Below, one piece after another: positions 387 to 27,684 of a stretch of 27,845 nt of DNA. Numbering within the stretch: position 1 is the first letter of the stretch; the number at the start of each line of letters is the position of its first letter. The notes under the pieces are model-generated. The model made no database searches and was not told the DNA's origin. It saw only the letters and a list, made by a program, of their open reading frames with translations. Source of the DNA: a virus (Duplodnaviria; Caudoviricetes); IMG/VR virus record IMGVR_UViG_3300032292_000879, positions 1-27,845 of that record; one strand, given 5' to 3'. Made by a program: the position numbers and the translations under genes.

Positions 387-778
387 GTCAAGTCGCCTCC
401 GAGAGCAATCACCCGGACCGTTCCACTCGTCGGAGCGACTGTGATTGTGGCGCCCAGCTTCCAGCTAGCACTAGGCAGGACGAGATCGGTGTAAGCCGTG
501 GTGACTTGGTGGCCCTTGGTGGTGGTGCTGCCTGTTACGGCGCTGATCGTGAACTGATCGAACAGGTCCCAGTTGGTGCCGTCGTTGATGAACAAGTTGA
601 CCAAGGCGGCGACGGTGGTGGCGGTGCCTTGAGCGCGGATTTGCAGGATGCGCGTACCAGCGGCCACCCCGGTGATCAGGTCGGTAATGGTGCCTGTCCC
701 GTCAGTTGCCGTGTTGGCGGTGCTGAGGGAGCAGCGCCCAATTCGGGCAGTGGAAATGAAGCTGGGATTGCTGGCCAT
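383..778 (-). CDS. Hypothetical virion protein, probable fibre adaptor / beta-sandwich (131 aa)
   Basis: ATG lies 3 nt after the upstream fibre stop and the gene is ATGA-coupled to the next one. Beta-rich T/G/A composition, C-terminus ALGGDLT. Confidence 0.75.
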   Translation of the reverse strand: MASNPSFISTARIGRCSLSTANTATDGTGTITDLITGVAAGTRILQIRAQGTATTVAALVNLFINDGTNWDLFDQFTISAVTGSTTTKGHQVTTAYTDLVLPSASWKLGATITVAPTSGTVRVIALGGDLT

Positions 779-781
779 GGC

Positions 782-2656
782 TTAGATGCAGAGGCTGTTA
801 AGGGTGAGATTGGCCCCGGCAAATCGGCTGTCGTTACCGGCGGCCACCGTGCCAGCGGTTGTACCGACATTCAGCGTAGCGGCACCCCCGAGACCGAGGC
901 TGGTGCGGCCAGTTGCCGCCACGAGATTGGTGCTCCCGCCGTCCCACTGACGGCGCTCCGTATAGGCAGAATCCCACGTCGTCTGACTGGCAGTTGTAGG
1001 CAGCGAATAGCCAGCGGTGAATGCAAGCGCAATCGTGCCACTTGATGTAATAGGGCTATTGCTTACGGTGAAGCCGGTTGGAGCACTCAGGCCGACGCTG
1101 GTGACGCTGCCTGCACCGCCGGGTGGTACGGCCCACGTTCCATCGGCACGGAGGTAGTTCGAGGTGCCGCCGCCAGAGCTGGGGGCGAGGCCGGCGTCGG
1201 TCGAGGTGAAGAGGGGGAGGGTGGCGCCGGTGCCTGTGCTGGATGCAAGTGCGCGGGTGCTGGCGGTGTAGGTGAGATTCGTGCTTAGGCGGCTGTCATT
1301 CCCGGCGGCGACCGTACCAGCGCTGGTGCCGACATTGAGGACAGCGGCGCCGCCAAGACCAAGGCTCGTGCGTTGCGCTGCGGCGTCGGCGGCGGTGAGC
1401 AGAGCGCGACCCGCTGTAGTGCTATCGGTGATTTGGCTGGCGGTGGGGTTGGCGTGGACGTGATCAGCTCGGGCCAGCGTTGTGGACGTGCCAACCGCAG
1501 CGGTGCCGAGCGCTGCAGGCGTGGTGCTGCTGTAGATGGTGCGGTTCTTCCATAGGCCGTCTGCAGCGAGGACAAGCGCCTGGTCCGTAACCGCGCCTGT
1601 AATCAGGACGTCATGCAGCTCATTTAGTTCCAGGCCATTATCGACTTTGATGTAGATGATGCCGCTGCTGCCCGCGCCTTGTTTGACGCAGTAGCCGATG
1701 ACGACGCTGTGGGCGGGCTGGGTGGGGCGGGTGGAGGTGAGCTGGCCGGTGGTTTCGCTGAGCCAGACGAGCGCACCAACGGTGAGCGCGGAGGTGTTGA
1801 TGCCGCCAAGCTCACCTACTGCCATCACGTAGCCGTTGCTGTTGCTGCCGATGGCGGTCTGAGTAAGGCCGATGGTCAGCGCAGCAGTCAGCTCCGTCGA
1901 GGCATCGGCTGGAGCGATGGTCAGTGTGTTGCCATTAGCGCCGGTGACGTAGACGGGAACGCCTTTGGCAATGGAGCTGGCGGTATCGTTGCGAACAGGT
2001 ACAAGTACGGTGTAAGAGGATGTGGTAGCGACATTGAGAAGCTGCGAGCCGTCAACAGCGGGGAGCCGACTGGTCCCGTCAAGCTGAACAACATTATTAG
2101 GACTGGTGCCGACGTCGAGTACGGCGGACGTACCAAGGCCGAGGCTGGTTCGGCCCGTGGCAGCGACGAGGCTGGTGCTGCCGCCGTCCCATTGCCGCCG
2201 TTCGGTGTAGGCGGTGTCCCAGTTGGTTTGACTGGATGTTGTGGGCAGGGAGTAACCCGCTGTGAAGCCGAAGGTGAGCGTTCCACTCGACGTGACGGGG
2301 CTGTTGCTGACCGTGAAACCGGTGGGTGCGCTTAGGCCGACGCTGGTTACGGTGCCCGCGCCACCGGCAGGGGCGGCCCAGGTGCCGTCAGCGCGGAGGA
2401 AGTTGGTCGTACCACCGCCGGAGTAGGGGGTTAGGCCTGCGTCGGTGGATGTGAATAGCGGCAGCGTGACGTCGGCTCCGCTGGAGGAGGTGAGGAGTCG
2501 GGTGGCTGCGGTGTAACCGAGGTCCGTACCAGGGCCAGCGGGACCGGCGGGGCCAGCAGGTCCTTGGGGACCAGCCTCAACTGCGGTGACGGTTACGACG
2601 TCTGTTTCTGCAACAGTTACAACGTCTGTTTCAGTAACGACAGTTACGATAGTCAT
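782..2656 (-). CDS. Tail fibre-like protein with short collagen stretch and an internal 141-aa duplication (624 aa)
   Basis: GPQGPAGPAGPAGPG near the N-terminus. Repeated LRADGTW, VTSVGLSAPTGF and RTSLGLG..AxLNVGT fibre motifs. ATGA-coupled to 2653..2991. Confidence 0.8.
   Translation of the reverse strand: MTIVTVVTETDVVTVAETDVVTVTAVEAGPQGPAGPAGPAGPGTDLGYTAATRLLTSSSGADVTLPLFTSTDAGLTPYSGGGTTNFLRADGTWAAPAGGAGTVTSVGLSAPTGFTVSNSPVTSSGTLTFGFTAGYSLPTTSSQTNWDTAYTERRQWDGGSTSLVAATGRTSLGLGTSAVLDVGTSPNNVVQLDGTSRLPAVDGSQLLNVATTSSYTVLVPVRNDTASSIAKGVPVYVTGANGNTLTIAPADASTELTAALTIGLTQTAIGSNSNGYVMAVGELGGINTSALTVGALVWLSETTGQLTSTRPTQPAHSVVIGYCVKQGAGSSGIIYIKVDNGLELNELHDVLITGAVTDQALVLAADGLWKNRTIYSSTTPAALGTAAVGTSTTLARADHVHANPTASQITDSTTAGRALLTAADAAAQRTSLGLGGAAVLNVGTSAGTVAAGNDSRLSTNLTYTASTRALASSTGTGATLPLFTSTDAGLAPSSGGGTSNYLRADGTWAVPPGGAGSVTSVGLSAPTGFTVSNSPITSSGTIALAFTAGYSLPTTASQTTWDSAYTERRQWDGGSTNLVAATGRTSLGLGGAATLNVGTTAGTVAAGNDSRFAGANLTLNSLCI
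860..2527 (-). repeat. Intragenic duplication, 423 nt: 2105..2527 and 860..1282
   Basis: TDLGYTAATR...LGLGTSAVLDVGT aligns without gaps to TNLTYTASTR...LGLGGAATLNVGT. Confidence 0.9.
2592..2639. repeat. 24-nt imperfect tandem repeat (ETDVVT x2) at the fibre N-terminus
   Basis: gttacgacgtctgtttctgcaaca / gttacaacgtctgtttcagtaacg. Confidence 0.8.
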
Positions 2657-2991
2657 ACCGTGTAGCCCTCAGATACGGTAACTGTACCTTCTAAGTAGTA
2701 TTGGCGAACGTTACTAGGGTTGATAAGTAGGACGTCGTAGTAAGCCTTGTCGGGAAATAGCGAGGTTTGATCGTCTGTAAGTGTGATGGCGATTGTACCT
2801 GTGACTCGGTTGGTATAAGCTACGGTAAAATCCGCGTACTTAGTGCTGCGGTCTTGGTTCCAGACTTGGGCTGCGACGGTCCAGCCGGTGAGGTTTATTG
2901 CGGTATCTGTGCTGTCCTTGAACTGCAACGTGATGTTGTAATCAGCACGCCGTTGTAATTTTATGTTGTAAGTGCCCGGATAGATGGCCAC
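2653..2991 (-). CDS. Ig-like fibre-anchoring protein (LtfC / BppU-N-like, 112 aa)
   Basis: GTG start. The pattern INLTGWTVAAQV...GTIAITLT...YYDVLL...YLEGTVTV is typical of small proteins that precede collagen-like fibres. Confidence 0.65.
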   Translation of the reverse strand: MAIYPGTYNIKLQRRADYNITLQFKDSTDTAINLTGWTVAAQVWNQDRSTKYADFTVAYTNRVTGTIAITLTDDQTSLFPDKAYYDVLLINPSNVRQYYLEGTVTVSEGYTV

Positions 2992-3039
2992 GGCTAGGTC
3001 CGGTAGTCCTAATAGCCTAGCTGGAAGGGGAGGCGCAGC

Positions 3040-3177
3040 TTAGCGGCCCTGACCGCGCAGCTTTTTCTTGCCGCGACGGCGGGGCCTGGAGCGTTGGCCT
3101 TGGCCCTGGCTTGTGGTTTTGGGCGGGCCAGGCGTGTGATCGAGGCGGGCAACGCCGGTTTTGCTGCGGGTGGCCAT
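3040..3177 (-). CDS. Small highly basic protein (45 aa; absent from ORF track)
   Basis: Hand translation: MATRSKTGVARLDHTPGPPKTTSQGQGQRSRPRRRGKKKLRGQGR*. It fills the gap between dcd and 2653..2991. The RGQGR ending resembles small basic cyanophage proteins (from recall). Confidence 0.8.
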   Translation of the reverse strand: MATRSKTGVARLDHTPGPPKTTSQGQGQRSRPRRRGKKKLRGQGR

Positions 3178-3205
3178 AGGTTCGCGTGGCGGGTGGCGTG
3201 GGAGC

Positions 3206-3721
3206 TTAGCCCTTGGAGGCGGCGACGCTTAGGTCAGCGTTGTAGCGGCCGGTCTTGGCGTAGGAGATCTCGGGCTGGCCCGAGATCAGCAGGAATTTCA
3301 TTTGGCCTATGCGGAGACCGGGCCAGATGGGGAGGGGGTGCATCTTGCGGCCGTTCTTGATCTCCATGGTGAGGCGACTTCCGTACCAGCCCGGATCGCA
3401 CCAGCCCGCTTCGGCGTGGTCCCAGCCGTCGCGAGCGCGACTCGACTTGAGAACGAACTGAGCACCTACGTGGTCAGGCATGTGGAAGATCTCCTGGGTT
3501 TCGGCTAGGAAGAATTCGCCGGGTTGAATCCAGTAAGGGGCGTCTTGGGCGTGGTCCGAGATGAGCACTTGCTGAAGCTCGGGGGTGTGGGGGACCTCGA
3601 CCATCATGCGGTCGCCAAGGGTGACGTCGAGGCTGGCGGGGTTGAGGTTCTCCTCGTTGTAGGGGCTGACCATCGCCTTCATGCGGCAGAGGCGGCGGAT
3701 TTCGTGGTCGGGGAGGATCAT
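3206..3721 (-). CDS. dcd: dCTP deaminase (dUTPase-like superfamily)
   Basis: Motifs MILPDHEI, LNPASLDVTLG, PGEFFLAETQE, KSSRARDG, AGWCDPGWYG.RLTMEI and PGLRIGQM. Confidence 0.92.
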   Translation of the reverse strand: MILPDHEIRRLCRMKAMVSPYNEENLNPASLDVTLGDRMMVEVPHTPELQQVLISDHAQDAPYWIQPGEFFLAETQEIFHMPDHVGAQFVLKSSRARDGWDHAEAGWCDPGWYGSRLTMEIKNGRKMHPLPIWPGLRIGQMKFLLISGQPEISYAKTGRYNADLSVAASKG

Positions 3722-3770
3722 TGACTTGTTGCGATTGTTGAGTGAGTGCAGGAACTAAGACGTGGTGGAC

Positions 3771-4403
3771 TTAGCGTATGGCGACGAGCATACCTTGAAT
3801 TGTGTTGAAGTTTGTGCCTAAGGTTAGCGAATAGTTGGTATTAGTTACGGCATCTTCTTTTAGTACAATATAGACTAGGCCGCCTATTCCTGATGATCCT
3901 GAGTACAGGGTGGTTGGGCTGCCGCCTGTTACGCTCCAGGTGACACTATTTTGACCGGAGGCTGCATAGGCTACAAATGTGCAGGGAGTTGTATATCCTC
4001 CCGATCCAGTCATGTTAAGTACGTGAGTTGATTGATTGGATGAGGTGCTGTAGTTGGATACGAGCGTGGAGATGTTGCGGTATATGATGACGGTGCCGTG
4101 GATAGTTGCGGATTTTGAAGCGGTAAATGTGTAAGATTGTGAGCCGCCTGCGGTTGCGTATTTGTAACCGAAGAACATGTTTGGTAAGACTCCTGCGTCC
4201 TTGACTTCGGTTACGCCGGAGGGTGGTGTCCACGTCAGGTTGCCGTTACCAGCAGCGCTGGCAAAAAACAGCATGATGTCGCCTGTGGCAGTGCCGCCTG
4301 TAGCTGTAAGCGTTATGGAGGATGCCGTGGCAACTGCTTGAGCTGAATCTACGAAAAGGGGCGGGGGAGTAGCGCCAGAAAGAAGGAGCTGCTGAATGGT
4401 CAT
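3771..4403 (-). CDS. Hypothetical protein, candidate receptor-binding / distal fibre subunit (210 aa, low GC)
   Basis: ATGA-coupled to the fibre gene. S/T/G-rich beta protein with GDIMLFF...WTPPSG.TE...YKYAT...SYTFT. Visibly more AT-rich than its neighbours. Confidence 0.65.
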   Translation of the reverse strand: MTIQQLLLSGATPPPLFVDSAQAVATASSITLTATGGTATGDIMLFFASAAGNGNLTWTPPSGVTEVKDAGVLPNMFFGYKYATAGGSQSYTFTASKSATIHGTVIIYRNISTLVSNYSTSSNQSTHVLNMTGSGGYTTPCTFVAYAASGQNSVTWSVTGGSPTTLYSGSSGIGGLVYIVLKEDAVTNTNYSLTLGTNFNTIQGMLVAIR

Positions 4404-5380
4404 GTGAGGCCGCCGCCGCTAAGGACGAAGACGTTTGAGGCGACGCAGAAGACAGTGCAGAGGCCTCGGGTTGCCAGGGTGAAGCTGGTCTTTACGGTGT
4501 TCGAGCCAGCCAGGTAGGCGGTTACGGCGGAGGTAGTGATCGTCTGCGAAGCCGACGAGTTGTTGTAGATGCTTACGGCTTGGCCGGCGGAGAAGACGGA
4601 AGCGGGGACGGTGACACCGCCGGTGGTGATGGAGATGTGCTTGCCGTGGTCCGCTGCGACGAGGGCGTAGGCGGAGGTTTGGGCGTTCTGTGGGATGGTG
4701 CGGAGTTCTCCCTTGGAGTCGGAGAAGGTGGAGTTACCGGAGACCGCACCAGTGAAAGAGGGGGTGGCCAGGGTGGCGTAGCCGGAGATGCTGGCGCCTG
4801 CAGGAATGGTGACCGTACCAGTGAAGGTGGGGGAAGCGAGTGGGGCGTAGCCGGAAATGCTGGCGCCGGCGGGGATGGTGACGGTGCCGGTGAATGTGGG
4901 GGAGGCGAGGGGAGCGCGAGTGGTGTCGGTGGGGTGAACGTGATCCTGGCGGGCGTAGCGCAGGGACGTACCAACGGCGGCGGTGCCGTCCTGCGCTGGT
5001 GCGACCGACGCGGCCTGGCCGATCACGAATGCCGTGGTGGCGATTGCGGTGGTGTTGGTGTCGGCGGCTGGAGTGGTGGACGTTCCACCGCCGCTGAGTG
5101 TTGCAGCGCCTGTGACTCCGAGGGTGGTGCCGATCGAGGCGGCGCCGGTTGTGGTAAGTCCGGTGAGGGCGTAGGTGCTGGTGAGTTCAGCCCAGGCGCT
5201 GCCTGACCACTTTTTCCAGCGATTAGCGGTGCTGTCCCACCTGATGGTGTTGGTGGGGATGTTGGTGCTGGTGGTGCCGTCGAATTGCAGGGCTAGGTCT
5301 TCGTCGCGGTTCTTGACCTCTAAGACGAAGTTTGTGTAAGTGCTTGTGAGTGTGGGATTGGACCAGTTTGCGTTAGCCAT
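4400..5380 (-). CDS. Side tail fibre protein (326 aa)
   Basis: Follows J via a TGATG overlap. Fibre motifs TPAADTNTTAIATTAFV, ARQDHVHP and APLASPTFTG. Confidence 0.8.
   Translation of the reverse strand: MANANWSNPTLTSTYTNFVLEVKNRDEDLALQFDGTTSTNIPTNTIRWDSTANRWKKWSGSAWAELTSTYALTGLTTTGAASIGTTLGVTGAATLSGGGTSTTPAADTNTTAIATTAFVIGQAASVAPAQDGTAAVGTSLRYARQDHVHPTDTTRAPLASPTFTGTVTIPAGASISGYAPLASPTFTGTVTIPAGASISGYATLATPSFTGAVSGNSTFSDSKGELRTIPQNAQTSAYALVAADHGKHISITTGGVTVPASVFSAGQAVSIYNNSSASQTITTSAVTAYLAGSNTVKTSFTLATRGLCTVFCVASNVFVLSGGGLT
4745..4915 (-). repeat. 69-nt (23-aa) tandem repeat APLASPTFTGTVTIPAGASISGY x2 plus a partial third copy
   Basis: Units 4847..4915 and 4778..4846 encode an identical peptide with synonymous differences. 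Confidence 0.9.
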
Positions 5381-8300
5381 CAGACTCCTCTCGCACTCCA
5401 GCTAAATGTGCCGCTGACTCGTGTGCCAGACGTGTTGAAAAGAAGCACCTTGAAACTTGTGGGATTAGGGGCGTCCACAAAATCATAGACGGCGATGACA
5501 GGGCTGGTAGTAAGCGGTGAGACTGTGATTGAATCTACATCAATAAAAGGTATGCTGAAGTTTACGGTCGTGCCACCGCTGTCGCCGGAGTTGGCGGTGG
5601 CGACGCCGGAGTCTGTCCGCAGCTTGGTATCGAGGCGAATGTTGAGGGCGGTGATTTGGAGGAGGTCCGTTCCACCCGAGGAGGCGAAGTCGTATTGGAC
5701 GCGGATGTAGCGGAAGTTGGTGCCGAAGACGCTGCTTACGTTGGAGTAGCTTGTCCAGCCGGTCCAGGAGACGTTTCCGCTTGTGGTGGTGCTGGTGGCG
5801 CTTGTTACGGTGAATGTGTTGGTGGCGGCTGTGGCGACCACGTAAGTTCCAGTGGTGGCTGTGCCGCTTGTGAAGTTGAGGTAGACAAGTTGATTAGCTA
5901 CTAGGCCGTGTGCATTGGATGTGACGGTGATTGTTGTTGTGGTCTGGGAGTAGGTGGCTGCGGTGGTTGATGTGCCCCTAAGACTGATCTTGGGGGTGAT
6001 TGACATACTGCCTGCAATGTTGTTGTCAGTGATGGAGGCGGTGACTTTGCAGCCAGCGAGAACTGTTCCGTAGTCAACGTCTTCGTAGTATTGGCCTGTG
6101 CTTACGGATGGCATCGCGTAGTAGGCGTAGCCAGCGTTTATTTGGTCTTGGGGGGTTGTCCAGCTTCGAGAGGTGAAGTGCGATTGCCAGGTTTCAGTGG
6201 TGTTGACGTTAGCGATTAGGCCGCCTTCAAAAGATGCGGTGTTGGTCTTAGTGCCGGAGAATGTGCTGTTTATGTCAGATTTGAGGATGTAGTCGGGTGG
6301 TTGGTTTACGGAGGCGGTGACGCTGCCGGGGGTGCCGTAGTTACCGGCGGAGTCGATGCCAGCGAGCCAGTAGGTGTACGTGCCAGCGGCGGTCTCGAAG
6401 ACTGTGGTGAATTTGCCTTGCTTGGTTCCGATGACGGTGGCGCTGGCCCAGGTCGAGCCTTTCCTTAGTTCGTAGGAGACGATGGGGAGGGTTTGGGTGG
6501 CGTCGGTCCACTGGAGGAGGACGTTGTTGTCGATGACTTGCTGAGTGATGGTGGGCTGCGATGGTGCGGTCACCATGGCGTCGAAGGTGGCTGACGCGCC
6601 GTAATTGCCCACGAGGTCAACAGCAGCAATGAAGAAGCGGCGGCCACCGCTCCAGCTCGCTTTGATTGAGATTGTGCTGCTTTGGGAAGTGCCGTAGACG
6701 GTGGCAGTGCTCCAGGTATCGGACATGGAGCCGTAACGAATCTCGTAATAGACAGTGCTCCACGTTCCAGCGACACGGGTCCATATGAGGTTGAGATTGT
6801 CGCCGCTGAAGGTGCCGGAGACGACTGGAGCGACTGCGGCGAGGACGGTGACTGAGGCGCTAGTTGCCGTTGTGGAGTAGGTGCCGGATGTGTCGAGGGC
6901 TTTGATCCACCACGTTGTCGTACCAGCGGGGAGCAGGCCGAGTTTCTTGGAGGTGGCGAAGAAGACGCCGATTTTCGTGCCAGCGCCCCAGGAGGGGCCT
7001 TGCCAGATTTCGTAGCCCTGGAGGTCGAGGTCAGCTACGGCGGTCCAGTTGAGGCTGATGCCGACGTCGGGGTCGATGGTGGCGGTGAAGGTGGCGACGT
7101 TTGCTGGAGGTGCGGTTTTGCCTAGGGCGTTGATTGAGCCGGTGAGCGCGTTGGTGGAAGCGATGCCTAGGGCGTTGAGGCTGTAGATTTCGACCTCGAA
7201 GAAGCCGGGGGTGACGTCGAGGATTTCGTAGTCCTGCTGCTGGCGGACCACGGAGGTCCAGTTGCCGGAGTCTTTGCGCCAGTTCACGCGGTATTGAGGT
7301 ACGCCTAAGACGTTGCGCCAGGTGACGATGATCTTGGAGCGGACTTGGTTTGTGTAGGTGTATAGGGCTTCGGTTAGGTCGAGGTTGGTTGGGGTAGCTG
7401 GGATGTCAAGCAGTGTGCTTACGGAGCGGGATTGGAGCGGGACGTTGCGCTCGACGTAGTTGTATTTGGAGGCGTTGTAGGCGAGAGCGGTGACGGTGTA
7501 TAGAGCGCCGTCCTGTTCTTGGACGCTGAGTACGCGCCAGGTCGTTGTTTGGAGGGTTGAGGTCTCGAAGATCCAGACGCTGTTTGGGTTGGGGGCGACG
7601 GAGAAGGGGGTGCTGGGGGTGACGACGTTGCCGGTGACGGTGGTGACAGCGCGGCTTTCGACGGTTCCGTCTGGGAGGATGACGGAAATGGTGGGCGTGT
7701 TGGTAGCGGTAAGGCCGGTAGCGTCGTCAACGGTGACGTTTGAGGTGGTGGCGGAGGTGATGCGACCGCCACGACGCGAGCCAGCCCGCACTGGGTCGCT
7801 GACTTCGATGATCTGGCCGGGGCGCACGATTACACCGGCGTCGATCGAGGCGGTGAAGGTGCAGGTCTCGGTTTCGTAGAGGGCGGAGTAGAGGAGCCAT
7901 TCGCCGATGCGGCGAGCTTGACCGCGCGACGTACACGCAAACGCGGAGATTTCTTCCTTGATTACGCCGAACTTGGAGATGCCATCTGCATTTTCAACGA
8001 CCTCGTAGGCCGTGTCGCGGAGATCCATGTCCAGGTACTGGACGACGGCGACGGTAGGCCGTGTTTTGAGGCTGGAGCCGCTGTAAGTGAAGCCCTCCTC
8101 TGTGACGTTGGCGAGGGTGAAGAGGTAGGAGGAGTCGGCTGGTTTGTCCTGGGAGACGGTGAGCGCACCGGTGCTCCAGAAGGGCATGGCACGGAAGACC
8201 GAGCACATGTTGTTGATGAGCCTGTAGGCGTCTTCGGCGGTTTGGATGTTGGCGTTGCAGGAGAAGCGTGGCTCCGTTCCACCGAAGCCATCAGCGACTG

Positions 8301-18284: not shown

Positions 18285-18289
18285 GAGGA

Positions 18290-18538
18290 TTACCTCTCAG
18301 GTGGGGTTGGGGGAAGCGTGCGCTCGACTAGTGTGCGGACGCCTGTCTCGGGATCGAGGAGGTACGAACCACCCTGCCCGTGGAACTCATCTACAAGGAT
18401 AGAGGACGCAGGCTCGGTGGTTTCTTCTACGCTTTCCGAGGCAAACTCTTCGGCGGTGATGAACTCTTCGTTGAGAAGAGCTTCACCGGCGTTGATGTCG
18501 TCTTCGGAGACGGAAGTGGAGGAGGTGGTGCGGGCCAT
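18290..18538 (-). CDS. Small acidic hypothetical protein (82 aa; start corrected to ATG 18538)
   Basis: ATG lies 4 nt after the upstream stop. Acidic N-terminal half, C-terminal DEFHGQGGSYLLDPETGVRTLVERT. Confidence 0.65.
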   Translation of the reverse strand: MARTTSSTSVSEDDINAGEALLNEEFITAEEFASESVEETTEPASSILVDEFHGQGGSYLLDPETGVRTLVERTLPPTPPER

Positions 18539-18542
18539 CGGC

Positions 18543-18965: not shown

Positions 18966-18984
18966 GGTGCGCGTACCTTTGTAC

Positions 18985-19263
18985 TTAGCTTAGGGTGAGC
19001 ATTACGGTGCAAAGTTTGCCGTCGTCGAGTTTCATGGTTTCGCGGACGGTGTAGGTGGTGTCTTCGATGGTTACGGTGTCGCCGTAGAGGAGGTGGCCGA
19101 AGTCGGAGGTGCGGCAGGTGAGGCGGTAGTCGGTGGTGAGGACTACGCCGTCTGCGACGATTTCGGAGGGCATGTCGAGGATGCCGACGCCGGTGGACGT
19201 ACCAGCGGTGACGGGGACTCCGAAGTCGGTGAAGAAGAGGTCGAGGTCTTCGGAGAAAGCCAT
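18985..19263 (-). CDS. Head-tail joining (head closure) protein, FII-like
   Basis: 92 aa with FFTDFG...GILD...GDTVTIEDTTYTVRE...DDG. Synteny supports the call. Confidence 0.7.
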   Translation of the reverse strand: MAFSEDLDLFFTDFGVPVTAGTSTGVGILDMPSEIVADGVVLTTDYRLTCRTSDFGHLLYGDTVTIEDTTYTVRETMKLDDGKLCTVMLTLS

Positions 19264-19275
19264 GGGTGGGGGCCT

Positions 19276-19309
19276 AGAGAAAGACCCCAGACCGGGGTGG
19301 CCTGGGGTC
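19276..19309 (-). terminator. Rho-independent terminator after the capsid/decoration genes
   Basis: Minus strand GACCCCAGGCC-ACCCC-GGTCTGGGGTC-TTTCTCT. Confidence 0.75.
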
Positions 19310-19332
19310 GGTGGTGGCTTAAGCGCGGGAGC

Positions 19333-19743
19333 TTAGACGTACTTCTTGGCGCCTACGGCGTTGATGCTGTAGGTGTGGGAAGAGGAGCTGGTGGTGGAGA
19401 CGGCTTTGATGAAGCGTTTGGCCGCGCCTTTGGGGAAGACGAGGTACTGCTTGGAGGCCGTGGTGGTGGCTTGGGCGAAGGCGACGGCGGAGCTGGCGAC
19501 TTCAGAACCGCCACGGAAGAAGGCGGTGGTGACGTCGGTGTAAGAGCCGCCGGAGGTGTCGGCACTTTGGATCTTGACGTCGAGGGTGGACGTACCACCG
19601 CTGGCGACGTCGAGGATGACGACGATGTCGCCTTCGTAGTCGGCGAGGTCAACGGCGGTGCCGTCGAGGTTGCTGGTGCGGACAGCGGTGGGGGCCAGGG
19701 CGAAGTGTTGGAGCTTCTCCAGGCCGGTGGAAAGGATGGACAT
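19333..19743 (-). CDS. Probable head decoration / capsid-associated protein (136 aa)
   Basis: DGTAVDLADYEG...TLDVKIQSADTSGGSYTDV...KRFIKAV. High-expression codon usage. Lies between the capsid gene and the terminator. Confidence 0.65.
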   Translation of the reverse strand: MSILSTGLEKLQHFALAPTAVRTSNLDGTAVDLADYEGDIVVILDVASGGTSTLDVKIQSADTSGGSYTDVTTAFFRGGSEVASSAVAFAQATTTASKQYLVFPKGAAKRFIKAVSTTSSSSHTYSINAVGAKKYV

Positions 19744-19746
19744 GGC

Positions 19747-19974
19747 TCAGTCCTCGGGGGGAGCGGGGGGCTTGGGTTTGGCCGAAGCCTTGGCGGGGGA
19801 CGCGGCGGGCTTGGGCTCGGGTTTGGGTTCGGGGGCTGGCTCGGCCTCCGGGGCCGGGGTGGCTTTGCCGGAGGTGATGAGCAGAGCTGCCACGGCGTCG
19901 GGAAGATCCAGGGAGGAGCCTGCCTGAGCGGGCTCCCCTGAGATCATCACTTGCCGGGTGATCAGAACGCGCAT
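19747..19974 (-). CDS. Small hypothetical protein with a P/E/K/A-rich tail (75 aa)
   Basis: Directly after the capsid gene. About 38-aa compact N-terminus, then APEAEPAPEPKPEPKP low complexity. Confidence 0.75.
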   Translation of the reverse strand: MRVLITRQVMISGEPAQAGSSLDLPDAVAALLITSGKATPAPEAEPAPEPKPEPKPAASPAKASAKPKPPAPPED

Positions 19975-20006
19975 GGGTTAGATGGCGGGGGAACTACTGC
20001 TCAGGA

Positions 20007-22997
20007 TCAGGTTCCGTAGCAGAAGGCGGCGGGCTGCTTGATGGCGAAGTCAACGTCCTGGAGGGCGATGACGCGAACCGTTCCAGCGGTTGCACCGGCG
20101 AAGGGATCAACGGTGAGATCGAGTCCTGACCACATCGCCATGATCATCATCGAAAAATCACCGAAGAGTGCGTCATTAGTTCCGAGTTGATTCGAGACGA
20201 TGACGGGGTAGCCATTGATTTCGTTGTTTTCGTAGACGAAACCGGCGGCAACGGCGGTCGCGGACTTGGCGGTGGACTTGAGCGCACCACGCGCGGCGGC
20301 GTTGATGATGTAACGCATCGCGCCAGCGTCGGCGTTGCCTGCGGCAACGTCGGTCTCCATGCCGATGTACTCCTCGAAGGTGCCGTAGGTGGTGATGGTC
20401 TGGCTACCGATGCCGGTGGTGTTGATCAGGCCGAGGGGCTGGTTGGAGGAGCCGGTGCCGTACATGCCAGCACGGTCCAGTTCCAGGGCGATGACGCGGG
20501 TGAGATCGTTGCGGATCATGCCCTCGACGTCGATGCTGGATTGGAGCAGCAGGCGGCGGCTGTAATCGACGTACGCACCAACGGTCTTGGGCGTCATGTT
20601 GACCTGATCGATCGCTTGCTGCGATTCGGTCGGGGCAACATTTTCACCTACCCAGTATGCGCTACTGGCCGAATTTTGTCTCGGGATGCTGATGTTGCCT
20701 TGGAGGCCGCTCAGCATCGTGACGCCAGCGTTGGCGAGGGCGAGGCGGTTACGCAGCAGGTCGATGAACGACCCGCTGAGGAGTTGGTCGGCGACGAGGT
20801 TGCCGCCAGCGGAGGGGAGACCGGCGAGGAGGTCGCGGCGGAGGACTTCGTTGGGGACGACGATGCCGTTGCTGGAGCGCTCGTACTTCTGAGCGGCGGC
20901 CTTACCGACTTCGATCTCGAATTCGGCGGCGCGACGGGCGGAGGCGTCGCTGGGGTTGGCCAAGAAGTTGAGGGCGCGGACGAAGCTGAAGCGCTTGGTT
21001 TCGCTGGAGGAGAGGCCGACATCGTTGGTGGTGATGTCGGTGGAGCGGATGGGTTGGTCCATGGTGGTAGAGCCGAGTTTGTCGAGGACAGCGGTGCGAG
21101 CTTCATCGAGGGTGCGACCACCTTCGATGAGTTCACGGGCCAGGTCTTGCATCTGGTGGCGTTCGCCCAGTGCAGTGATGGCGGCGATTCGGGTCCGCTC
21201 GGCCTCAACGGCCTTGGACCGGACCACCTCCAGGTCAGGGGTGTTTTCCATTTCGGGAATGGGGGTAGATGCGGTTTCGGCCGCTGAGCGTGATGCCGGT
21301 TCGGCCACTTGCGCAGCGGAAACAGGCGCTTCGTCTTCAATAATAGACGGGCAGGAGTCGATTACTTCGGGGTCGAGGTGTGCGTCAGAAAGGAGTGAAC
21401 GTCCGATTCCGATTGTGGGATCAGCAGGTATTGAAACCACGCTAATTTCTACGGGCTGCCAACGTGTGGCGACAAAGTTGCCGCTACGCTCTTCCATTTT
21501 GTCGATGCCGTAACCGAAGCTGATGCCGCGAAGGATGTTGTCCTTGACATCGTCAAGGACTTCTTGCGCGAATTGATTACGGGAGAAGCGGACTTTGGCG
21601 TAGCCGCGCTTGTCGGATTCGTTAATCCAGGCGCGTTCCACGACACCGACGATCTTGTCGGGGTTGTGGTTGAAGAGGAGAGGGGCGCCATCGTTGAGGC
21701 GGGTGAGATCGGCAGCGTCGGATTCGTGGCTGAGCACCTCGTTTCCGAAGTAGCGGGCCACCGGGTATTCGGAGCTGAAGGGGAACTCGAAGGTGCGCTC
21801 TTCGATGGCACGGAAGTGGGTGGCTTCGGTGCGATTGTGGCGTTCGCCGATAGCGCGAGTAGCGTCGTTATCCATAGCTCTTAGGGCTGCGATCTTAGTA
21901 AGTGTAGAGAAGCGGTGGCCGACGAGAGTTTCTGTGGGTTCCCAAGCGGTGCCGGTTTGGCGGAAGATGCGGATTAGGGCGGCGGGATCTTCGGCGGTGG
22001 CGTTGATGCTGAATTCGGTGTTGGGGACGCCGAGGGTGCCTTCGCGCATGACGTGCTCGATGCGACCTTGGGCCGTTCCACCGGAGCTGGGCCAGCGCAC
22101 GTAGTCGCCGGTGGATAGGTCGGAGGGGTTGGCGCGTTCCACGGCGCGGTCGCCAGTGGCTTCCTCGAATTGGAGGGGCTTGTAGTCGTGGTCGCTTAGC
22201 CAGGCGCGGGCTTCGGCGGCGGTGAAGCGGCTGAGGCGGAAACGGATGGCTTGGAGTTCGGCGCCGGATTGGCCGTTTTTGATGCCGAAGATGAAGTCGA
22301 TGCCACGGCCAGCGGCGTTGTTACGGCGGCGGAAGCGGTCGTATTGCGAGGGGTCGCGGAGGCGAGCGGCGTGTTCCTGCGGGTAGGGGCGGTCGCTGCC
22401 TGGCTCGGGCGCTTCGGAAATTAGGCGCTCGGGGATGATCCAGAATTTGCAGAGGCCTTCGGGGGCGATGTCGCCTTCGACGATTTCGCAGGCGCGGGCG
22501 CCGGCGTAGAAGGCGCAGTTGGCGCAGACGAGGCCGGAGGAGGCGAAGGGGCTCTCCGGCATGTAGTGGGAGCCGTGAGGGCCGGAGGATTGGTCGAAGT
22601 CGCCGAGTTCGTCGGCGACGTCTTCGTAGGCCTCGTAGAGGGCGGCTTGGCCAGCGCTCACGGAGGAGTCGAGTTCGCGGTCGGTGTTTTCCATTTGGGT
22701 TACGAGGGAGTCGCTCCAGCGCTTGCCAGGGTCGCCGCCCCAGGCGGCCCAGGCGACACGGCCGGGTGAGGGGTAGCCGGACTCGCCGGGGCGGAAGCCC
22801 TCGGCGCGTTTATCGACTTCGTGGCGGGCGAACCAGGCGCTCATAGTGCGCACGGTGTCGGGGCTAAGCGGGTCGCCACTGAGGATTTGGGTGGCGCGAG
22901 TTGCGGCCACTTCCGTTCCACCGGCATGGCCTTCATGCTTCCAGGCGCGGTAGCGGCGAGCTTCCTCGCGCATCGCGTTTGTTGGGGTGGTGTTCAT
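20007..22997 (-). CDS. Polyprotein: four accessory domains + HK97-type prohead protease + scaffold + major capsid protein (996 aa)
   Basis: Protease motifs FSSEYPV, PLLFNHN, GISFGY and EISVVSIPADPTIGIGRS. Capsid motifs AGGNLVA, FIDLLRN, AYWVGE, PKTVGAYVDYSRRLL and FGDFS...DP. Confidence 0.93.
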   Translation of the reverse strand: MNTTPTNAMREEARRYRAWKHEGHAGGTEVAATRATQILSGDPLSPDTVRTMSAWFARHEVDKRAEGFRPGESGYPSPGRVAWAAWGGDPGKRWSDSLVTQMENTDRELDSSVSAGQAALYEAYEDVADELGDFDQSSGPHGSHYMPESPFASSGLVCANCAFYAGARACEIVEGDIAPEGLCKFWIIPERLISEAPEPGSDRPYPQEHAARLRDPSQYDRFRRRNNAAGRGIDFIFGIKNGQSGAELQAIRFRLSRFTAAEARAWLSDHDYKPLQFEEATGDRAVERANPSDLSTGDYVRWPSSGGTAQGRIEHVMREGTLGVPNTEFSINATAEDPAALIRIFRQTGTAWEPTETLVGHRFSTLTKIAALRAMDNDATRAIGERHNRTEATHFRAIEERTFEFPFSSEYPVARYFGNEVLSHESDAADLTRLNDGAPLLFNHNPDKIVGVVERAWINESDKRGYAKVRFSRNQFAQEVLDDVKDNILRGISFGYGIDKMEERSGNFVATRWQPVEISVVSIPADPTIGIGRSLLSDAHLDPEVIDSCPSIIEDEAPVSAAQVAEPASRSAAETASTPIPEMENTPDLEVVRSKAVEAERTRIAAITALGERHQMQDLARELIEGGRTLDEARTAVLDKLGSTTMDQPIRSTDITTNDVGLSSSETKRFSFVRALNFLANPSDASARRAAEFEIEVGKAAAQKYERSSNGIVVPNEVLRRDLLAGLPSAGGNLVADQLLSGSFIDLLRNRLALANAGVTMLSGLQGNISIPRQNSASSAYWVGENVAPTESQQAIDQVNMTPKTVGAYVDYSRRLLLQSSIDVEGMIRNDLTRVIALELDRAGMYGTGSSNQPLGLINTTGIGSQTITTYGTFEEYIGMETDVAAGNADAGAMRYIINAAARGALKSTAKSATAVAAGFVYENNEINGYPVIVSNQLGTNDALFGDFSMMIMAMWSGLDLTVDPFAGATAGTVRVIALQDVDFAIKQPAAFCYGT

Positions 22998-24574
22998 TCG
23001 TCGGTGGGCGGCGTGGACTTACGGCGGCGAGACCGTGACGGCGGCGGAGCTTCGCTAGGCGGGACGGGGTCTGTGGGTGGCGTTGGTGCGGAGAATGCAG
23101 GTGCGGCGTCGATGATGTCGCGGTCGAGGGTGACGTTTGCGTCGGAGCTGAGTTGTTGTTCGCGTGCGATTTCTGTGATGTTGTCGTCATAATCGCCACC
23201 GTTTTGCGCAACAATCTGAGATTTAGTCATGTAGCCGGCTTGCTCGGCTTCGCGGTAGGCCTTGACTTCCTTGAGGGGATCGACCCAGGACCAGCCACGG
23301 GGCATCCAGCGGGGCGTGTCGTAACGCTCGGGGCGCAGCTCGTAGTCGGCGAAGGGCAGTTCACCGCTGAGGACTGCGAGGTTCAACCACTCGCGGAAGA
23401 CACGCATGTGGAAGTTCTCGATTAGGTAGGTCTGGATGACGCGCCAGTGCTCGCGGTCCTCCAGCAGGCTTAGCCGCGAGCTGGAATAGTTGGTCTCCGA
23501 GAAGTCCTTGCTTAGGGTTTCGTAGGAGCAGCCAAAGCCGCTGGCGAAGCGGCGGATCTTGTTGCGGACGAACATCTCGAATTGTTGGTCCGGTGAGTCG
23601 ATTGTGGGGACGGAGACTGATTCGCCGGGGCTGAGATATTTGAACGTACCAGGCTCGAATTCACTTATGCGTTGGTTGTTTTCGATGGCGTCGGGGGTGA
23701 GTTCACCTTCGTTGTTGGTGATGAAGCCCATGATGGACGCGCCAGCGCGGGCACGGACCACGGCGGCTTCCTCGTAGCCCTGGAGTTGGTGGGCGTCGGC
23801 CATGACGGGGTGGAACCAGGGGACGCCACGGTTCTGGGAGGGGCGGTCGGGGAGAAAGAGGTGGATGATGTCGGCGGCGGGGATGAAGACGTGTTTGTTG
23901 CCGGAGGGGCGGGTGTTTTGGAACCAGTAGTCGCCGGGGTGGCGGGTGAGGATGGCGTAGCGGACGGGGCGGCCCCATTCGTCAACTTCGACGCCGTTGC
24001 GCCATTCGTTGTTGGTGGAGAGGGTGGGGCCGTTGTATTCCTCGTCGATTAGGTCGCTCTCCAGCATTTGGAGGGCGAGGGGGACTTTGGAGGTGCCGAA
24101 GGAGCGGCGGATGATGCGGAAGACTGCTTCGCCGGATTCGGGGAGGGCACCGGTTGCGAGCCACTCGAATTGGCTGAAGCTGTAGCGACCGGCGACGTCG
24201 CAGTTGGAGGCGCGGGTCCAAAGTTCCCACTTGGCCTCGATGAGCTTGTTGATGCGCTCGTCGCGCTTGTTGCCGCGCAGTTGGAGGACGAGGCTTTGGA
24301 GCTTGATGCCGGTGCCGATGACGTTGATTTGGGTGGTGCGCTTGGCTTGTTTGGCGTAGGGGTTGTTGCGGACCAGCTCGCGGGAGCGGTCGCGGAGCTT
24401 GCGGAGGCTGGTGCGGATTTCGGCGTCGGCGCTCGATTGGGTGGCGAGCCAGTCGGCGGTGAGGCGGGAAATTAGGGCGCCTTGATATTGGCGGCGGGCC
24501 AGCGGCCGGGCGGGGGTAGCGGGCTTGGTGGGACCGAAGCCGAAGGCGTGGGCAAGGGTGTCGCGGAGTCCCAT
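22994..24574 (-). CDS. Portal protein, lambda family
   Basis: LRDRSRELVRNNPYA, NGVEVDEWGRPVRY, RGVPWF, DFSETNYSSSR and WSWVDPLKE. Confidence 0.96.
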   Translation of the reverse strand: MGLRDTLAHAFGFGPTKPATPARPLARRQYQGALISRLTADWLATQSSADAEIRTSLRKLRDRSRELVRNNPYAKQAKRTTQINVIGTGIKLQSLVLQLRGNKRDERINKLIEAKWELWTRASNCDVAGRYSFSQFEWLATGALPESGEAVFRIIRRSFGTSKVPLALQMLESDLIDEEYNGPTLSTNNEWRNGVEVDEWGRPVRYAILTRHPGDYWFQNTRPSGNKHVFIPAADIIHLFLPDRPSQNRGVPWFHPVMADAHQLQGYEEAAVVRARAGASIMGFITNNEGELTPDAIENNQRISEFEPGTFKYLSPGESVSVPTIDSPDQQFEMFVRNKIRRFASGFGCSYETLSKDFSETNYSSSRLSLLEDREHWRVIQTYLIENFHMRVFREWLNLAVLSGELPFADYELRPERYDTPRWMPRGWSWVDPLKEVKAYREAEQAGYMTKSQIVAQNGGDYDDNITEIAREQQLSSDANVTLDRDIIDAAPAFSAPTPPTDPVPPSEAPPPSRSRRRKSTPPTDE

Positions 24575-24577
24575 GGC

Positions 24578-25159
24578 TTAGGCGTTGAATCGGACGAACA
24601 TATTGCGTGGGTTGCCGAGGCCGTTGGCCATGAGCTGCGCCGCCTCTTCACGCTTGACGTCAGCCTTGAGCTTTGCTTCGAGCTGGAGCAACTCGCTTAG
24701 GTCGTAGCGTTTGATGCTGCGCTGGCCGATGCGGTATTCCTGGACGCTGCCGCCGCTGAGGAGAGTGCGGATGGCAAGTTGTACGGCGTCGAGGTCCTTC
24801 TGGGCTTGGGTGCGGCCGTCGTAAGCGGTGGGGTTGCTGGCGTAGGCGAGGGAGGCGGCGACGGTGATGCTGCCTCGGCCCAGCTCGGTGACGGTGCTGT
24901 CACTGATCTTGGTGGCGACGGCGCTGAAGTACCACGTACCAGCGGCCATTGGGCCGGTGGTGGCGGCGCTGAGGGTGCTGCGCCAGGAGGTGCCGGAGGC
25001 GGTAGCGGTGCTGGTTACAGCCTCGAAGACTTCGTTGTAACGGAGGTAATAGATAAGGGTGTGGGTTGTGGAGTCAATGGAGGCGCCGAAGATGTCCACG
25101 GTGGGGGTGTCGTCCCACACGACCGTCGTTCCAGCGGTGATTTGGGGTGGGATGTTCAC
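24578..25159 (-). CDS. Head-tail adaptor, gpW-like C-terminal domain with an N-terminal extension (193 aa)
   Basis: Lies between terL and portal. C-terminal LDAVQLAI...VQEYRIGQRSIKRYDLSELLQLE. GTG start. Confidence 0.72.
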   Translation of the reverse strand: MNIPPQITAGTTVVWDDTPTVDIFGASIDSTTHTLIYYLRYNEVFEAVTSTATASGTSWRSTLSAATTGPMAAGTWYFSAVATKISDSTVTELGRGSITVAASLAYASNPTAYDGRTQAQKDLDAVQLAIRTLLSGGSVQEYRIGQRSIKRYDLSELLQLEAKLKADVKREEAAQLMANGLGNPRNMFVRFNA

Positions 25160-25236
25160 CTAAGGCTTAACGGGGCTAGATACAGCTTAGCCGTAGGTGG
25201 GCATTAGGAATTTGTGGGGTTTGAGTGTGGTGCGAT

Positions 25237-27111
25237 TTACCACTGGTGGATGAAGTTGCGGCGGGGTTTGGAGGTGGTGGGGGCGGGTTTTGGAGGTGGG
25301 GGCGTACCAGCGGAGCCGAGGGTGCGCTCGAATTGGTCCCAGATGGTGCGGCGGTCGTACTTCTGGTAGAGGCGGTGGAGCGCGGCGTAGGCGTAGTTGA
25401 GTTCGTCGAGAGCTTCGTTGGGGGACTGGGATTTCTTGACCCAGATGCGTTCGGGGAAGCCGTTGCGGAAGCGGAGGATCTGTTTTTCGGCGGTCAGTTC
25501 CTCGAAGTAGTCGTTGGTGATGGTGGGGTAGAAGTGGAGGTAGCCCGGACCAGGGTCGTTGTGTTTGAGGCGGCCGAATAAGAGGGACTTGATTCCGTCA
25601 ACGCCCACATTGAAAATTTGCACCCCTTTCTTAAGCAGCTTGCCATTGTAGTTCACGTCAACTTTGGACGGCTTACTTAGGGGCGGTTTGCCTTTCTGAT
25701 TAGCGCCTTTGATGGGGATTACGCCGAGGGCGGCGCGTTCGCGGGCGTATTGGTAGACCTCCTGGGTGTGGTGACCGCCGGAGTCGATCGCCATGATTTG
25801 GATGCTTAGGGAGTCGCCGGATTCGTTGGTGTAGGGGGTGCGGAGAACTTCGTCGAGTTGTTTCCAGACGTCGGGGCGGCTGGGGCTGCCGTAGAGCTTG
25901 ATGCGATCGACGAGCCAGCCCTCCTCGTCGCGGCCCCACGCCCAGACGCTGACGCTGAGGCGGTCGTCCTGGCAGTCGCATCCCGCTGTAAGTACGAGGC
26001 CTTCGATGGGTGGGCAGTGCTGCTTGTACGCCTCCTTAGCGGCGCGTTCCATCAGGGAGGCGGCGCCGATCTTGGAGGCGTATTCGTCCTCCCAAGTTTC
26101 GCCGAGGACGGTGTTGACAAATGTCTTTAGCTGCTCCGCGTTCTGCTTAGCGTCGAGGAATTCTTCGACGAGGTTGGACCAGGAGGCGTTAGGGGAGTAG
26201 GAGTAGGCGGCCCAGATGTGGAAGCCGATGTGGCGGCCGTTGCCGGGGGCGGTGGGACGCCATTCGCCGCGTTCCACCATCCAGCGCTTTTTGCTGTGGG
26301 GGATGAGGGTGCCGCAGGATTCGCAGGCGTAGGCGGCGGTGGAGGGGTCGTTGTCGGTCCAGCGGATGTTGGACCAGCGGAGGTATTGCATGTGGGAGCA
26401 GTCTGGGCAGGGCACGTAGTAGCGGCGCTGGTCGGACTGCTGGAACATGCGTTCCACCCGGCTGAAGTCGCGGATGGTGGGGGTGGAGCCGGAGACGATC
26501 TTGCGGTTCCAGTAATACTCGGTACGGCGGATGCCTAGTTTTATCTGGTCGCCCTCGGCACCGGCGGATGCGGGGTAGCCGTCGATTTCGTCGAAGAGGA
26601 CGATGCGGCGGCTGACGCGGCGGAAGCCTCGGGGGGAGTTGGCGCCGACGAGGCTGAGCGTTCCACCGGGGAATTGCTTCTGAAGGATGGTGTTGGCGCC
26701 GTCCTTTGCTTTGGCTTCGCTGACGAGGCCGCGCAGGCAGGGGGTGTCGCGGAGCATGGGCGCGATCTCCTCTTTCGAGTAGCCCTGAGCGTCCTCAATC
26801 GTGGGCTGCACCAGCATGATGGGTGCGGGATCTTGGTGAATGTGATAGGCGATTACATGGTTGAGGATCTTGCTATAGCCGACACGGGCAGATTTCATTA
26901 CGGTTATCTGTTCGACGTTATGATCGCTTATTGCGTCCATAATGCCTTTTTGATAGGGTAAAGTGCGCCAACGGCCGCCTTCTGCGCTGGATTCGGCGCT
27001 TAGATAGGCGTAGGAATCGGCCCACTCGCTAAGGGTGAGGCGCTTGGGTGGGGCGAAGGCTGAGAGGGCGGCACGTTCTAAGCGGGTGATGTTTGCGGAA
27101 GCTGTAGGCAT
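25237..27111 (-). CDS. terL: Terminase large subunit, lambda GpA family
   Basis: PYQKGIMD, Walker A MKSARVGYS, Walker B VLFDEIDGY, STPT, CPDC/CESC, FVNTVLGETW, IDSGG and NEALD. Confidence 0.97.
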   Translation of the reverse strand: MPTASANITRLERAALSAFAPPKRLTLSEWADSYAYLSAESSAEGGRWRTLPYQKGIMDAISDHNVEQITVMKSARVGYSKILNHVIAYHIHQDPAPIMLVQPTIEDAQGYSKEEIAPMLRDTPCLRGLVSEAKAKDGANTILQKQFPGGTLSLVGANSPRGFRRVSRRIVLFDEIDGYPASAGAEGDQIKLGIRRTEYYWNRKIVSGSTPTIRDFSRVERMFQQSDQRRYYVPCPDCSHMQYLRWSNIRWTDNDPSTAAYACESCGTLIPHSKKRWMVERGEWRPTAPGNGRHIGFHIWAAYSYSPNASWSNLVEEFLDAKQNAEQLKTFVNTVLGETWEDEYASKIGAASLMERAAKEAYKQHCPPIEGLVLTAGCDCQDDRLSVSVWAWGRDEEGWLVDRIKLYGSPSRPDVWKQLDEVLRTPYTNESGDSLSIQIMAIDSGGHHTQEVYQYARERAALGVIPIKGANQKGKPPLSKPSKVDVNYNGKLLKKGVQIFNVGVDGIKSLLFGRLKHNDPGPGYLHFYPTITNDYFEELTAEKQILRFRNGFPERIWVKKSQSPNEALDELNYAYAALHRLYQKYDRRTIWDQFERTLGSAGTPPPPKPAPTTSKPRRNFIHQW

Positions 27112-27150
27112 AAGCGGCGTGGGGGCCTGGGGGCTTGGGGGCGTGGGAGC

Positions 27151-27684
27151 TTAGAGATCGCTGTCGTGGTCTTGGGTGTCACCACTTAGGTCCTCTAGGG
27201 TTTCGCGGACGATTTCGTCAAGGATGCCTATGGCGGAGACGTCGAGATCGGGTATGCGTTGCTTGGCTTTTGTGGGGATGCCGAGGATTTTGGTGCGTGC
27301 CAGGGTGATTATTTCGACCCATTTTGTCTCGATTTCGGCTGCGGGGACGAGGAGGCCTTCCTTCTGCTGGCGTTCCAGCTCCAGAAGTTCGGCTTTTAGG
27401 TGCTCGGTGCGGGCGCGGCTCTCGTTGTACTCGGGGACGGCTTCGGTGGTGCGGGCCAGGCGCTCAGGGCGCGGGCGGGGCGTACCAGCGGCAGGCATCG
27501 GGCCAACGCCGATGCGGCGCTGCGTGTTCTGCGCCCATTCCTCGCGCATGGTGTCGCTATTTACAAGCACACGGCCGTCAGCAGCGTTGATGACACTGAG
27601 ACGACCAGTGCGGATCGCAGCGTAAACCGCTTCTTTAGTGACACCTAGAGCGCGAGCGGCGTCAGTTCGTGAAATGAGTGGCAT
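27151..27684 (-). CDS. terS: Terminase small subunit, Nu1-like (likely start ATG 27684)
   Basis: N-terminal HTH (SRTDAARALGVTKEAVYAAIRTGRL) and coiled coil ESRARTEHLKAELLELE...GLLVP. Directly upstream of terL. Confidence 0.88.
   Translation of the reverse strand: MPLISRTDAARALGVTKEAVYAAIRTGRLSVINAADGRVLVNSDTMREEWAQNTQRRIGVGPMPAAGTPRPRPERLARTTEAVPEYNESRARTEHLKAELLELERQQKEGLLVPAAEIETKWVEIITLARTKILGIPTKAKQRIPDLDVSAIGILDEIVRETLEDLSGDTQDHDSDL

Follow-up and report, generated by a model that had tools for sequence, protein, structure and literature searches.

A strand-polar heptamer in the virion genes

The DNA under study, hereafter the window, comprises positions 1 to 27,845 of the single-contig virus record IMGVR_UViG_3300032292_000879 (IMG/VR; Duplodnaviria; Caudoviricetes), 27,845 nucleotides in all. 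It holds a siphovirus virion module of lambda type, with 25 of 25 called genes on the minus strand, and this coding strand bears a recurrent seven-base word, 5'-TGGWACG-3', whose occurrence among related genomes points to a phage-encoded primase-helicase as its reader. The word and the genes are located as follows.

419..27487, minus (coding) strand: strict array of 46 sites, 5'-TGGWACG-3', read as CGTWCCA on the plus strand with starts at 419, 653, 1136, 1313, 2129, 2279, 2408, 2525, 3382, 4814, 4967, 5081, 5668, 6763, 6919, 8275, 8449, 10080, 10833, 11778, 14205, 15018, 15382, 15634, 16911, 17649, 18039, 18894, 18909, 19198, 19591, 20079, 21634, 22074, 22135, 22914, 23645, 24935, 25127, 25303, 26045, 26270, 26450, 26659, 27371 and 27481
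1124..15736, plus strand: six strict sites in the minor orientation, a mild excess, at 1124, 8940, 9285, 11187, 14979 and 15730
6..27505, minus strand: degenerate array, TGGHNCG, 119 sites including the 46 strict ones, mean gap 233 bp and maximum gap 787 bp
383..5380, minus strand: fiber-like proteins and dCTP deaminase
3206-3721, minus strand: dCTP deaminase
5380..18284, minus strand: tail genes (tail proteins, minor tail and tail assembly proteins)
5380-9213, minus strand: central fiber J
11544-16307, minus strand: tape measure
18543..25159, minus strand: head genes (head-tail joining, portal, protease-fused major capsid, connectors and tail terminator; PHROGs 5774, 21, 617, 82 and 4204)
20007-22997, minus strand: protease-fused major capsid
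22994-24574, minus strand: portal
25237-27111, minus strand: lambda-type terminase large subunit, carrying array sites (PHROGs 57 and 15 for the terminase pair)
27151-27690, minus strand: lambda-type terminase small subunit of the same pair, carrying array sites

The array is confirmed as a real feature of the window. Each of the 45 plus-strand CGTWCCA positions given in the initial annotation was present, a further site was found at 14205, and the six strict copies in reverse orientation lay exactly where they had been placed; the approximate figures given there were also reproduced upon counting (10 CGTGCCA for about 10, 21 CGTWCCASCG for about 20, and a mean gap of 601 bp between the 46 strict sites for a spacing of about 600 bp). 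Coding contexts were as described, with NNT GGW ACG at 36 sites, (V/L/M)-E-R or L-V-R at eight, and W-Y at two. The claim that the array is written against codon bias also held, as shuffling of synonymous codons in the window genes yielded 4.97 ± 1.56 copies of TGGWACG (maximum 11 in 1000 shuffles), or 5.0 versus the 46 observed, while shuffles conditioned on the next residue gave 5.7 (maximum 11 in 300) and shuffles that kept avoided palindromes out gave 5.8 (maximum 9 in 25). A first-order codon Markov model, which preserves codon-pair frequencies and supplies the dicodon-type null called for at the outset, produced 16.0 ± 4.0 copies with a maximum of 33 in 500 runs. TGGAACG and TGGTACG rank first and second among all 7-mers of the window, and the strand skew of the motif exceeds that seen in shuffles (binomial p = 3e-6), with the reverse orientation only mildly raised (6 versus 3.5 expected from the synonymous shuffle). 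Three trivial causes were rejected on these grounds, namely an abundance of Gly-Thr-rich proteins (the null models do not reach the observed count), codon-pair bias (16.0 versus 46), and avoidance of GGTACC, GCCGGC and similar sites (5.8 versus 46).

The word is used by 27 of 88 eligible x-Gly-Thr tripeptides in the window; the corresponding use is 0–6% in the related genomes G003, G005, G161 and G162 and in the Synechococcus phages S-CBS1 and S-CBS3 and phage S-LBS1 (G numbers denote genomes or records and L numbers loci; the G001 locus is L084, G450 is L395, G730 is L599, and G003 comprises L089–L091). In comparison with the relative G002, 18 of 29 window sites with unchanged residues were retained, and codon retention was higher inside sites than outside for most classes, although counts were small and GGW was inconsistent.

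The fuller motif is 5'-TGGHNCG-3', in which the two middle positions are variable, T, G, G, C and G being fixed: variants at the middle positions are enriched, while variants at the fixed positions are mostly at or under expectation. In the window, TGGHNCG occurs 119 times on the main strand and 55 times reversed. The 5' flank in the window lineage favors C-G-(C/G), with A disfavored at position −1. The 46 strict sites are no more regular than random (coefficient of variation [CV] 0.86, P = 0.23). However, spacing is more even than chance among the 115 degenerate coding sites, with a CV of 0.78 versus 1.02–1.08 in draws from 281 codable positions and a longest gap of 787 bp versus 1,300–1,400 bp in the same draws. 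Two overlapping inverted motif pairs with a common central CG were observed in G450 (20380-20391 and 32368-32379).

The window belongs to an S-CBS-like cyanosiphovirus, the best-ranked cultured capsid matches being S-CBS1 and S-CBS3 at 46–50% identity. The sigma factor in relatives of the window is ~40% identical to those of S-CBS phages, and a picocyanobacterial host is therefore inferred. Several further features of the window were noted. Contigs of one run, X1, possibly the source sample, confirmed the window sequence and did not extend it. A contig of this run stops exactly at 27845, and many relatives start ~700 bp before terL, so that 27691-27845 is likely a physical genome end. The window as a whole strongly avoids GCCGGC, CCGCGG, GTCGAC, TTCGAA, GCGCGC, GAGCTC, GGTACC, CAGCTG, GGCGGA and C6 runs, which are probably host restriction sites.

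Distribution of the word and the type P primase-helicase

Among relatives reached through terminase, tail, capsid and fiber proteins, the motif is patchy, being strong in G002, G450–G453 and others and absent from G003 and G004, although the terminase of these is 79% identical to that of the window. In 16 dereplicated loci of 36–41% GC reached via PolA, the same word is the top 7-mer (127 versus 31.5), and the members examined carry the primase family of G450, an uncultured primase-helicase family termed type P. The type P chain consists of a pRN1-like primase-polymerase (Prim-Pol), a PriCT-2 helical bundle, a RepA/DnaB-type helicase (AAA_25) and a winged helix, of which Prim-Pol, PriCT-2 and AAA_25 are Pfam domains. 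Residues 4–243 of the type P model match the pRN1 primase-polymerase 3M1M (Z 11.9, root-mean-square deviation 3.5, 173 aligned), the central part matches RepA, DnaB and T7 gp4 helicases, and Foldseek with the whole model returned the helicase part only. The family exceeds 1,300 protein clusters, a count that includes partial relatives. No cultured phage matching 80% of the type P protein was found among 50,697 records, and 401 genomes of the cyanobacterial family sampled contained no type P prophage, only helicase-domain matches. In G450, thyX is split by an intein with an HNH/NUMOD4 endonuclease (L395:1509-3149).

Alignment scans for type P yielded 160 loci, of which 125 reach at least 6 kb; dereplication of these left 48. 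All 48, each of which encodes an archaeo-eukaryotic primase (AEP) with helical bundle, lay above all 20 shuffles in the orientation given by the primase gene, with a median main-orientation excess of 1.76x (range 1.35–3.57) and a reverse median of 1.15x; the reverse orientation exceeded all 20 shuffles in 10 of 48. Thirteen genomes or loci without type P were compared, with G001 and G158 set aside, and 10 of these do not exceed their shuffles. The type P motif carriers span 33–60% GC, two unrelated packaging modules and habitats from lakes to ocean, with and without PolA. G455, G458 and G459 are motif-positive despite another terminase, portal and capsid module, and G455 is complete with terminal repeats and lacks PolA. 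The 21 polA genes counted from type P records hold 71 sites versus 13 expected. The window record is without a replication region; as its signal is strong and G450 carries type P, we infer that the window phage has its own type P primase, encoded outside the window.

The initial annotation had proposed that selection acts on a DNA or RNA signal rather than on protein, and had asked whether polarity follows transcription or a fixed genome strand. In type P loci, polarity goes with the genome strand, irrespective of the direction in which genes run: the main orientation is raised in plus-strand genes (175 versus 34 expected) and minus-strand genes (145 versus 74) of the 48 loci, and the reverse orientation amounts to 57 versus 40 and 37 versus 18 expected in genes of the two strands. 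In the non-coding DNA of relatives (49.7 kb called), the main orientation occurs 46 times versus 3.3 expected (14-fold) and the reverse 11 times versus 4.1. No polarity switch was found along G455, G458 or G459. Of 14 long type P records, 13 are enriched on the strand that the primase gene predicts and G718 is a tie; G718 is also the exception among the 48 loci, the other 47 showing fixed-strand polarity. A transcription-linked or mRNA signal was rejected, polarity being independent of gene direction and present in non-coding DNA. The null models, non-coding DNA and fixed strand thus support selection on a DNA signal and not on protein, while the RNA half of the original proposal is disfavored.

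Two other compositional biases were observed. On the coding strand of the window (383-27690), CTAAG/CTAAT occurs 61 times versus 22 expected, and TAGC, TATC, TACC and TAAC are depleted; G001, G158, G450 and G002 likewise have an excess of CTWAG and GCTTA, and this second bias is therefore not tied to the type P primase. The motif-negative clade (G003 L089–L091, L005 and L133) shows an excess of CAAGC/GCTTG words, present on both strands wherever the two were counted.

Candidate readers of the word

To assign the word to a gene, records in which the candidates part company are informative. The only genes common to 14 of 14 type P records are the primase and an 80-amino acid ribbon-helix-helix (RHH)-like gene; an exonuclease and a protein that binds single-stranded DNA (SSB) are found in 12 of 14 and are missing only at contig ends. 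The replication genes of G001 encode PolA, SSB, an MGME1-like exonuclease and an S-2L-like primase-helicase. In G001 and G158, the exonuclease, SSB and PolA belong to the motif-bearing clade, whereas the primase is of another family; the replication genes of these two records contain 12 sites versus 10.3 expected, with none in their two polA genes. This pattern fits decay of the motif after a primase swap; it also fits a role for the RHH-like gene, which is present in G001 and absent from G158. G001 could not be told apart from type P genomes by an analysis of private versus shared sites. A relaxed 3' G variant (CTGGARC) is concentrated in one primase clade, to which G458 and G459 belong and which has only two fixed differences in the N-terminal region, at positions 228 and 306 (G450 numbering), both in or beside the PriCT-2 bundle. 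G712 and L496 join this clade by PolA, exonuclease, SSB (in a FastTree tree), RHH strand or helicase half and not by primase domain, and both show the strict motif (3.1x and 2.7x versus 1.3–1.6x). Presence of the motif and its variant therefore follow the primase domain, in few independent events. Two other candidates were rejected. PolA is lacking from motif-positive G455–G457 and G716. The 880-amino acid primase of G001 (S-2L PrimPol-like domain and DUF3987) was rejected because its more distant carriers are without the motif and G450 is motif-positive without it; no polar word was found for this primase type. Other observations at these loci include the position of the RHH-like gene after polA (L599:11520-11771 in G730; L084:12027-12272 in G001, phrog_4113), tandem 10-residue repeats at the contig start of G001 (L084:3-383), and a conserved stand-alone NAD-dependent ligase adenylation-domain fragment in G001 (L084:2466-3236) and several relatives.

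We consider it likely that TGGHNCG, at its strongest as TGGWACG, is the site at which the Prim-Pol primase-helicase of the phage starts lagging-strand fragments; of the analogies drawn in the initial annotation, that with primase sites is the one favored by the comparative data. Helicases of the DnaB, RepA and T7 gp4 type move 5'→3' on the lagging-strand template. The type P helicase would travel along this template and the attached primase would prime upon meeting the word. By analogy with the NrS-1 and pRN1 sites the TGG strand would be the template, which is likely since the window sites mostly read (C/G)TGG. The fork would run one way round the genome, co-directionally with the virion genes (late transcription), and primers would start at T or just 5' of T. 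Synonymous positions would be selected to write the word in and prevent long gaps, because, at chance frequency, a site of 5–7 bases would occur too seldom to give short Okazaki fragments, and the weaker excess on the other strand may reflect repriming or a bidirectional phase.

Several observations weigh against this assignment. G005, G162 and L171, which are without type P, reach 1.25–1.32x and lie above all 20 shuffles, and a whole-genome excess remains in G001 (1.40x) and G158 (1.24x). The closest complete relative of the window by terminase, G001 (86%), carries the other primase type, whereas the figure is 76–77% for G450, the complete type P relative that shares the head module of the window. 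Among the discordant records, G712 keeps a 2.1x relaxed variant and may be a basal lineage rather than a swap, and L496 is only 6.1 kb long. The exonuclease clade equals the motif-bearing group if G001 and G158 are counted as positive, and the RHH-like gene is shared by all 14 type P genomes and G001. As to polarity, some AT-rich genomes are 2.3–2.6x enriched in the reverse orientation too, and G718 has none. Site spacing of 230–600 bp is below the 1–6 kb given for T7 Okazaki fragments in the available text of PMC8599759, and the long NrS-1 site is described in the accessible portion of PMC7102993 as occurring only twice per genome.

Other phage proteins could in principle read the word. Binding of the 7-mer in double-stranded DNA by the RHH-like protein encoded after polA, to coat or organize the genome, is unlikely in our estimation: the gene (atlas neighbor RHH_9 at 0.94) is found in 39 of 48 loci, with flanks limited by contig ends, and its absence from G158 would explain why G001 exceeds G158, but a double-strand binder alone yields no strand polarity, G712 combines the RHH strand sequence of the relaxed clade with the strict motif, and G162, nested among positives with a shortened copy bearing the same strand residues, shows an excess of at most 1.1–1.4x. 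A directional nuclease would yield polarity, and the clade of the MGME1-like exonuclease holds all motif-positive loci that have one together with G001 and G158, while motif-negative G159, G160 and G454 fall outside. That this enzyme, with SSB, pauses or stops at the word as a Chi-like mark of self, encoded by the phage, that serves resection or recombination-dependent replication is nonetheless quite improbable, given that G158 keeps the exonuclease and is near background, that the replication genes of G001 and G158 are without site excess, and that L496 has a relaxed-clade exonuclease and SSB yet a strict motif. The only clear solved relative of the exonuclease is MGME1, a flap-processing nuclease. 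The co-occurrence evidence points to the type P gene and not to an activity, so the same primase-helicase, which includes a winged-helix domain, might read the word for helicase loading, restart or winged-helix binding instead of routine priming; we judge this very unlikely, as the discordant records track the N-terminal primase region and not the helicase half, and even spacing suits repeated priming.

Explanations that look to packaging or to the host fare worse. T5- and phiKMV-like phages do have nick motifs confined to one strand, which the initial annotation had invoked, but the same motif accompanies unrelated terminases, portals and capsids and is missing from G003 and G004 with their similar terminase, so that no tie to one packaging machine was found and the nick analogy is disfavored. 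A methylation mark fits no better: no methyltransferase was found in G001 (74 open reading frames [ORFs] scanned) or in G455, G458 and G459 (41/56 ORFs >200 aa), and, at variance with a HIP-type methyltransferase-linked repeat, the motif is non-palindromic and polar, with no methyltransferase shared among the ORFs compared. We accordingly regard a packaging signal, a methylation mark and programmed nicks in virions as highly improbable causes. Most remote of all is that the word imitates a signal of the host, of Chi type or otherwise. A few large cyanobacterial genomes do reach 2–2.7x their control, and Chi is over-represented in some phages, the host excess itself being only ~2.3x in E. coli according to the available part of PMC3784561, which makes the host-genome control a coarse one. 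Nevertheless, in most of the 301 genomes of the phylum that were compared by eye, TGGWACG does not exceed the reversed-pattern control, and it peaks at ~316 per Mb versus ~1,870 per Mb in the window; CCGCTGGWACG never exceeds 22 copies in any of 151 genomes of the family. Apparent all-plus runs among the host matches were left out of account as probably an artifact, since plus and minus totals there are nearly equal. S-CBS1, S-CBS3, S-LBS1 and other-primase relatives are without the motif, while it spans phages of 33–60% GC. Over-representation in host chromosomes was thus not found in the sampled cyanobacteria, with a crude control and the actual host not identified; the Chi/KOPS analogy of the initial annotation is disfavored, and the likeness of GCTGGT to E. 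coli Chi appears incidental.

Returning to the priming-site assignment, we lean on balance toward a broader picture of an uncultured lake-to-ocean cyanophage family whose AEP primase-helicase has a private seven-base word, written by regular recoding of one strand, shifting with two residues of the helical-bundle region and fading upon primase swap. If so, primase specificity and fork direction would be readable from genome sequence alone, and the motif would mark primase type and replication direction in fragments without replication genes, such as the window. A replication enzyme would be overriding codon bias genome-wide, and dozens of genomes would display, as a product of selection, the site that is preferred together with its flanks, its strand and a naturally occurring specificity variant. 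The picture also gives an exact oligonucleotide (single-stranded DNA bearing CGCTGGAACG) and point-mutant predictions for an uncharacterized primase family.

Comparison with known priming systems and polar words

In AEP primases of mobile elements, the helix bundle is the part that reads words in the template, according to the available text of PMC10250227 and PMC8718748. The nearest parallel is the NrS-1 primase-polymerase, which like type P joins AEP Prim-Pol, helical bundle and helicase in one chain, and whose priming site is given as 5'-NTTGRYYA-3' / TTTGGTTA, and also 5'-GTGG-3', in the accessible portions of PMC8718748, PMC10250227 and PMC7102993. As far as these sources extend, its site resembles the present one in being long, extended on the 3' side and built around a TG(G) core; however, the NrS-1 8-mer has two copies, one per strand and origin-like, whereas here there are hundreds, polar and evenly spread in genes. 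Type P further differs from NrS-1 in its word and its RepA/DnaB-type helicase. The basis of the long NrS-1 site is presented as unresolved in the part of PMC7102993 available. The pRN1 ORF904 primase (3M1M), which the N-terminal domain of type P matches best in structure, reads 5'-GTG by its helix bundle (available text of PMC10250227), and the window sites are mostly (C/G)TG. For pRN1 the same text gives a triplet only and describes no genome-wide enrichment; the type P specificity is predicted.

T7 gp4, as covered by the accessible part of PMC8599759, uses 5'-GTC-3' sites with flank effects, and like type P fuses a primase to the same helicase class, with lagging-strand sites at which flanks matter. 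T7 has a DnaG-type primase and a common triplet that is mostly ignored, in contrast to an AEP and a rare enriched word here, and that source describes as open how primases choose Okazaki starts from short common words. Chi in phage genomes (available part of PMC3784561) is likewise a short polar word enriched in phage DNA; Chi is host-defined, whereas the present word goes with a gene of the phage, and most sampled cyanobacteria show no excess of it. S-CBS1, S-CBS3 and S-LBS1 share with the window a lambda-type head module and capsids 46–50% identical, and differ from motif carriers in having other replication proteins and no motif. No description of the word or of such an array in cyanophages was found in the literature searched, which was mostly without subscription papers and excluded supplements. 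Sequence-specific priming is already known from the systems above; what appears new is a polar, genome-wide array of a rare word.

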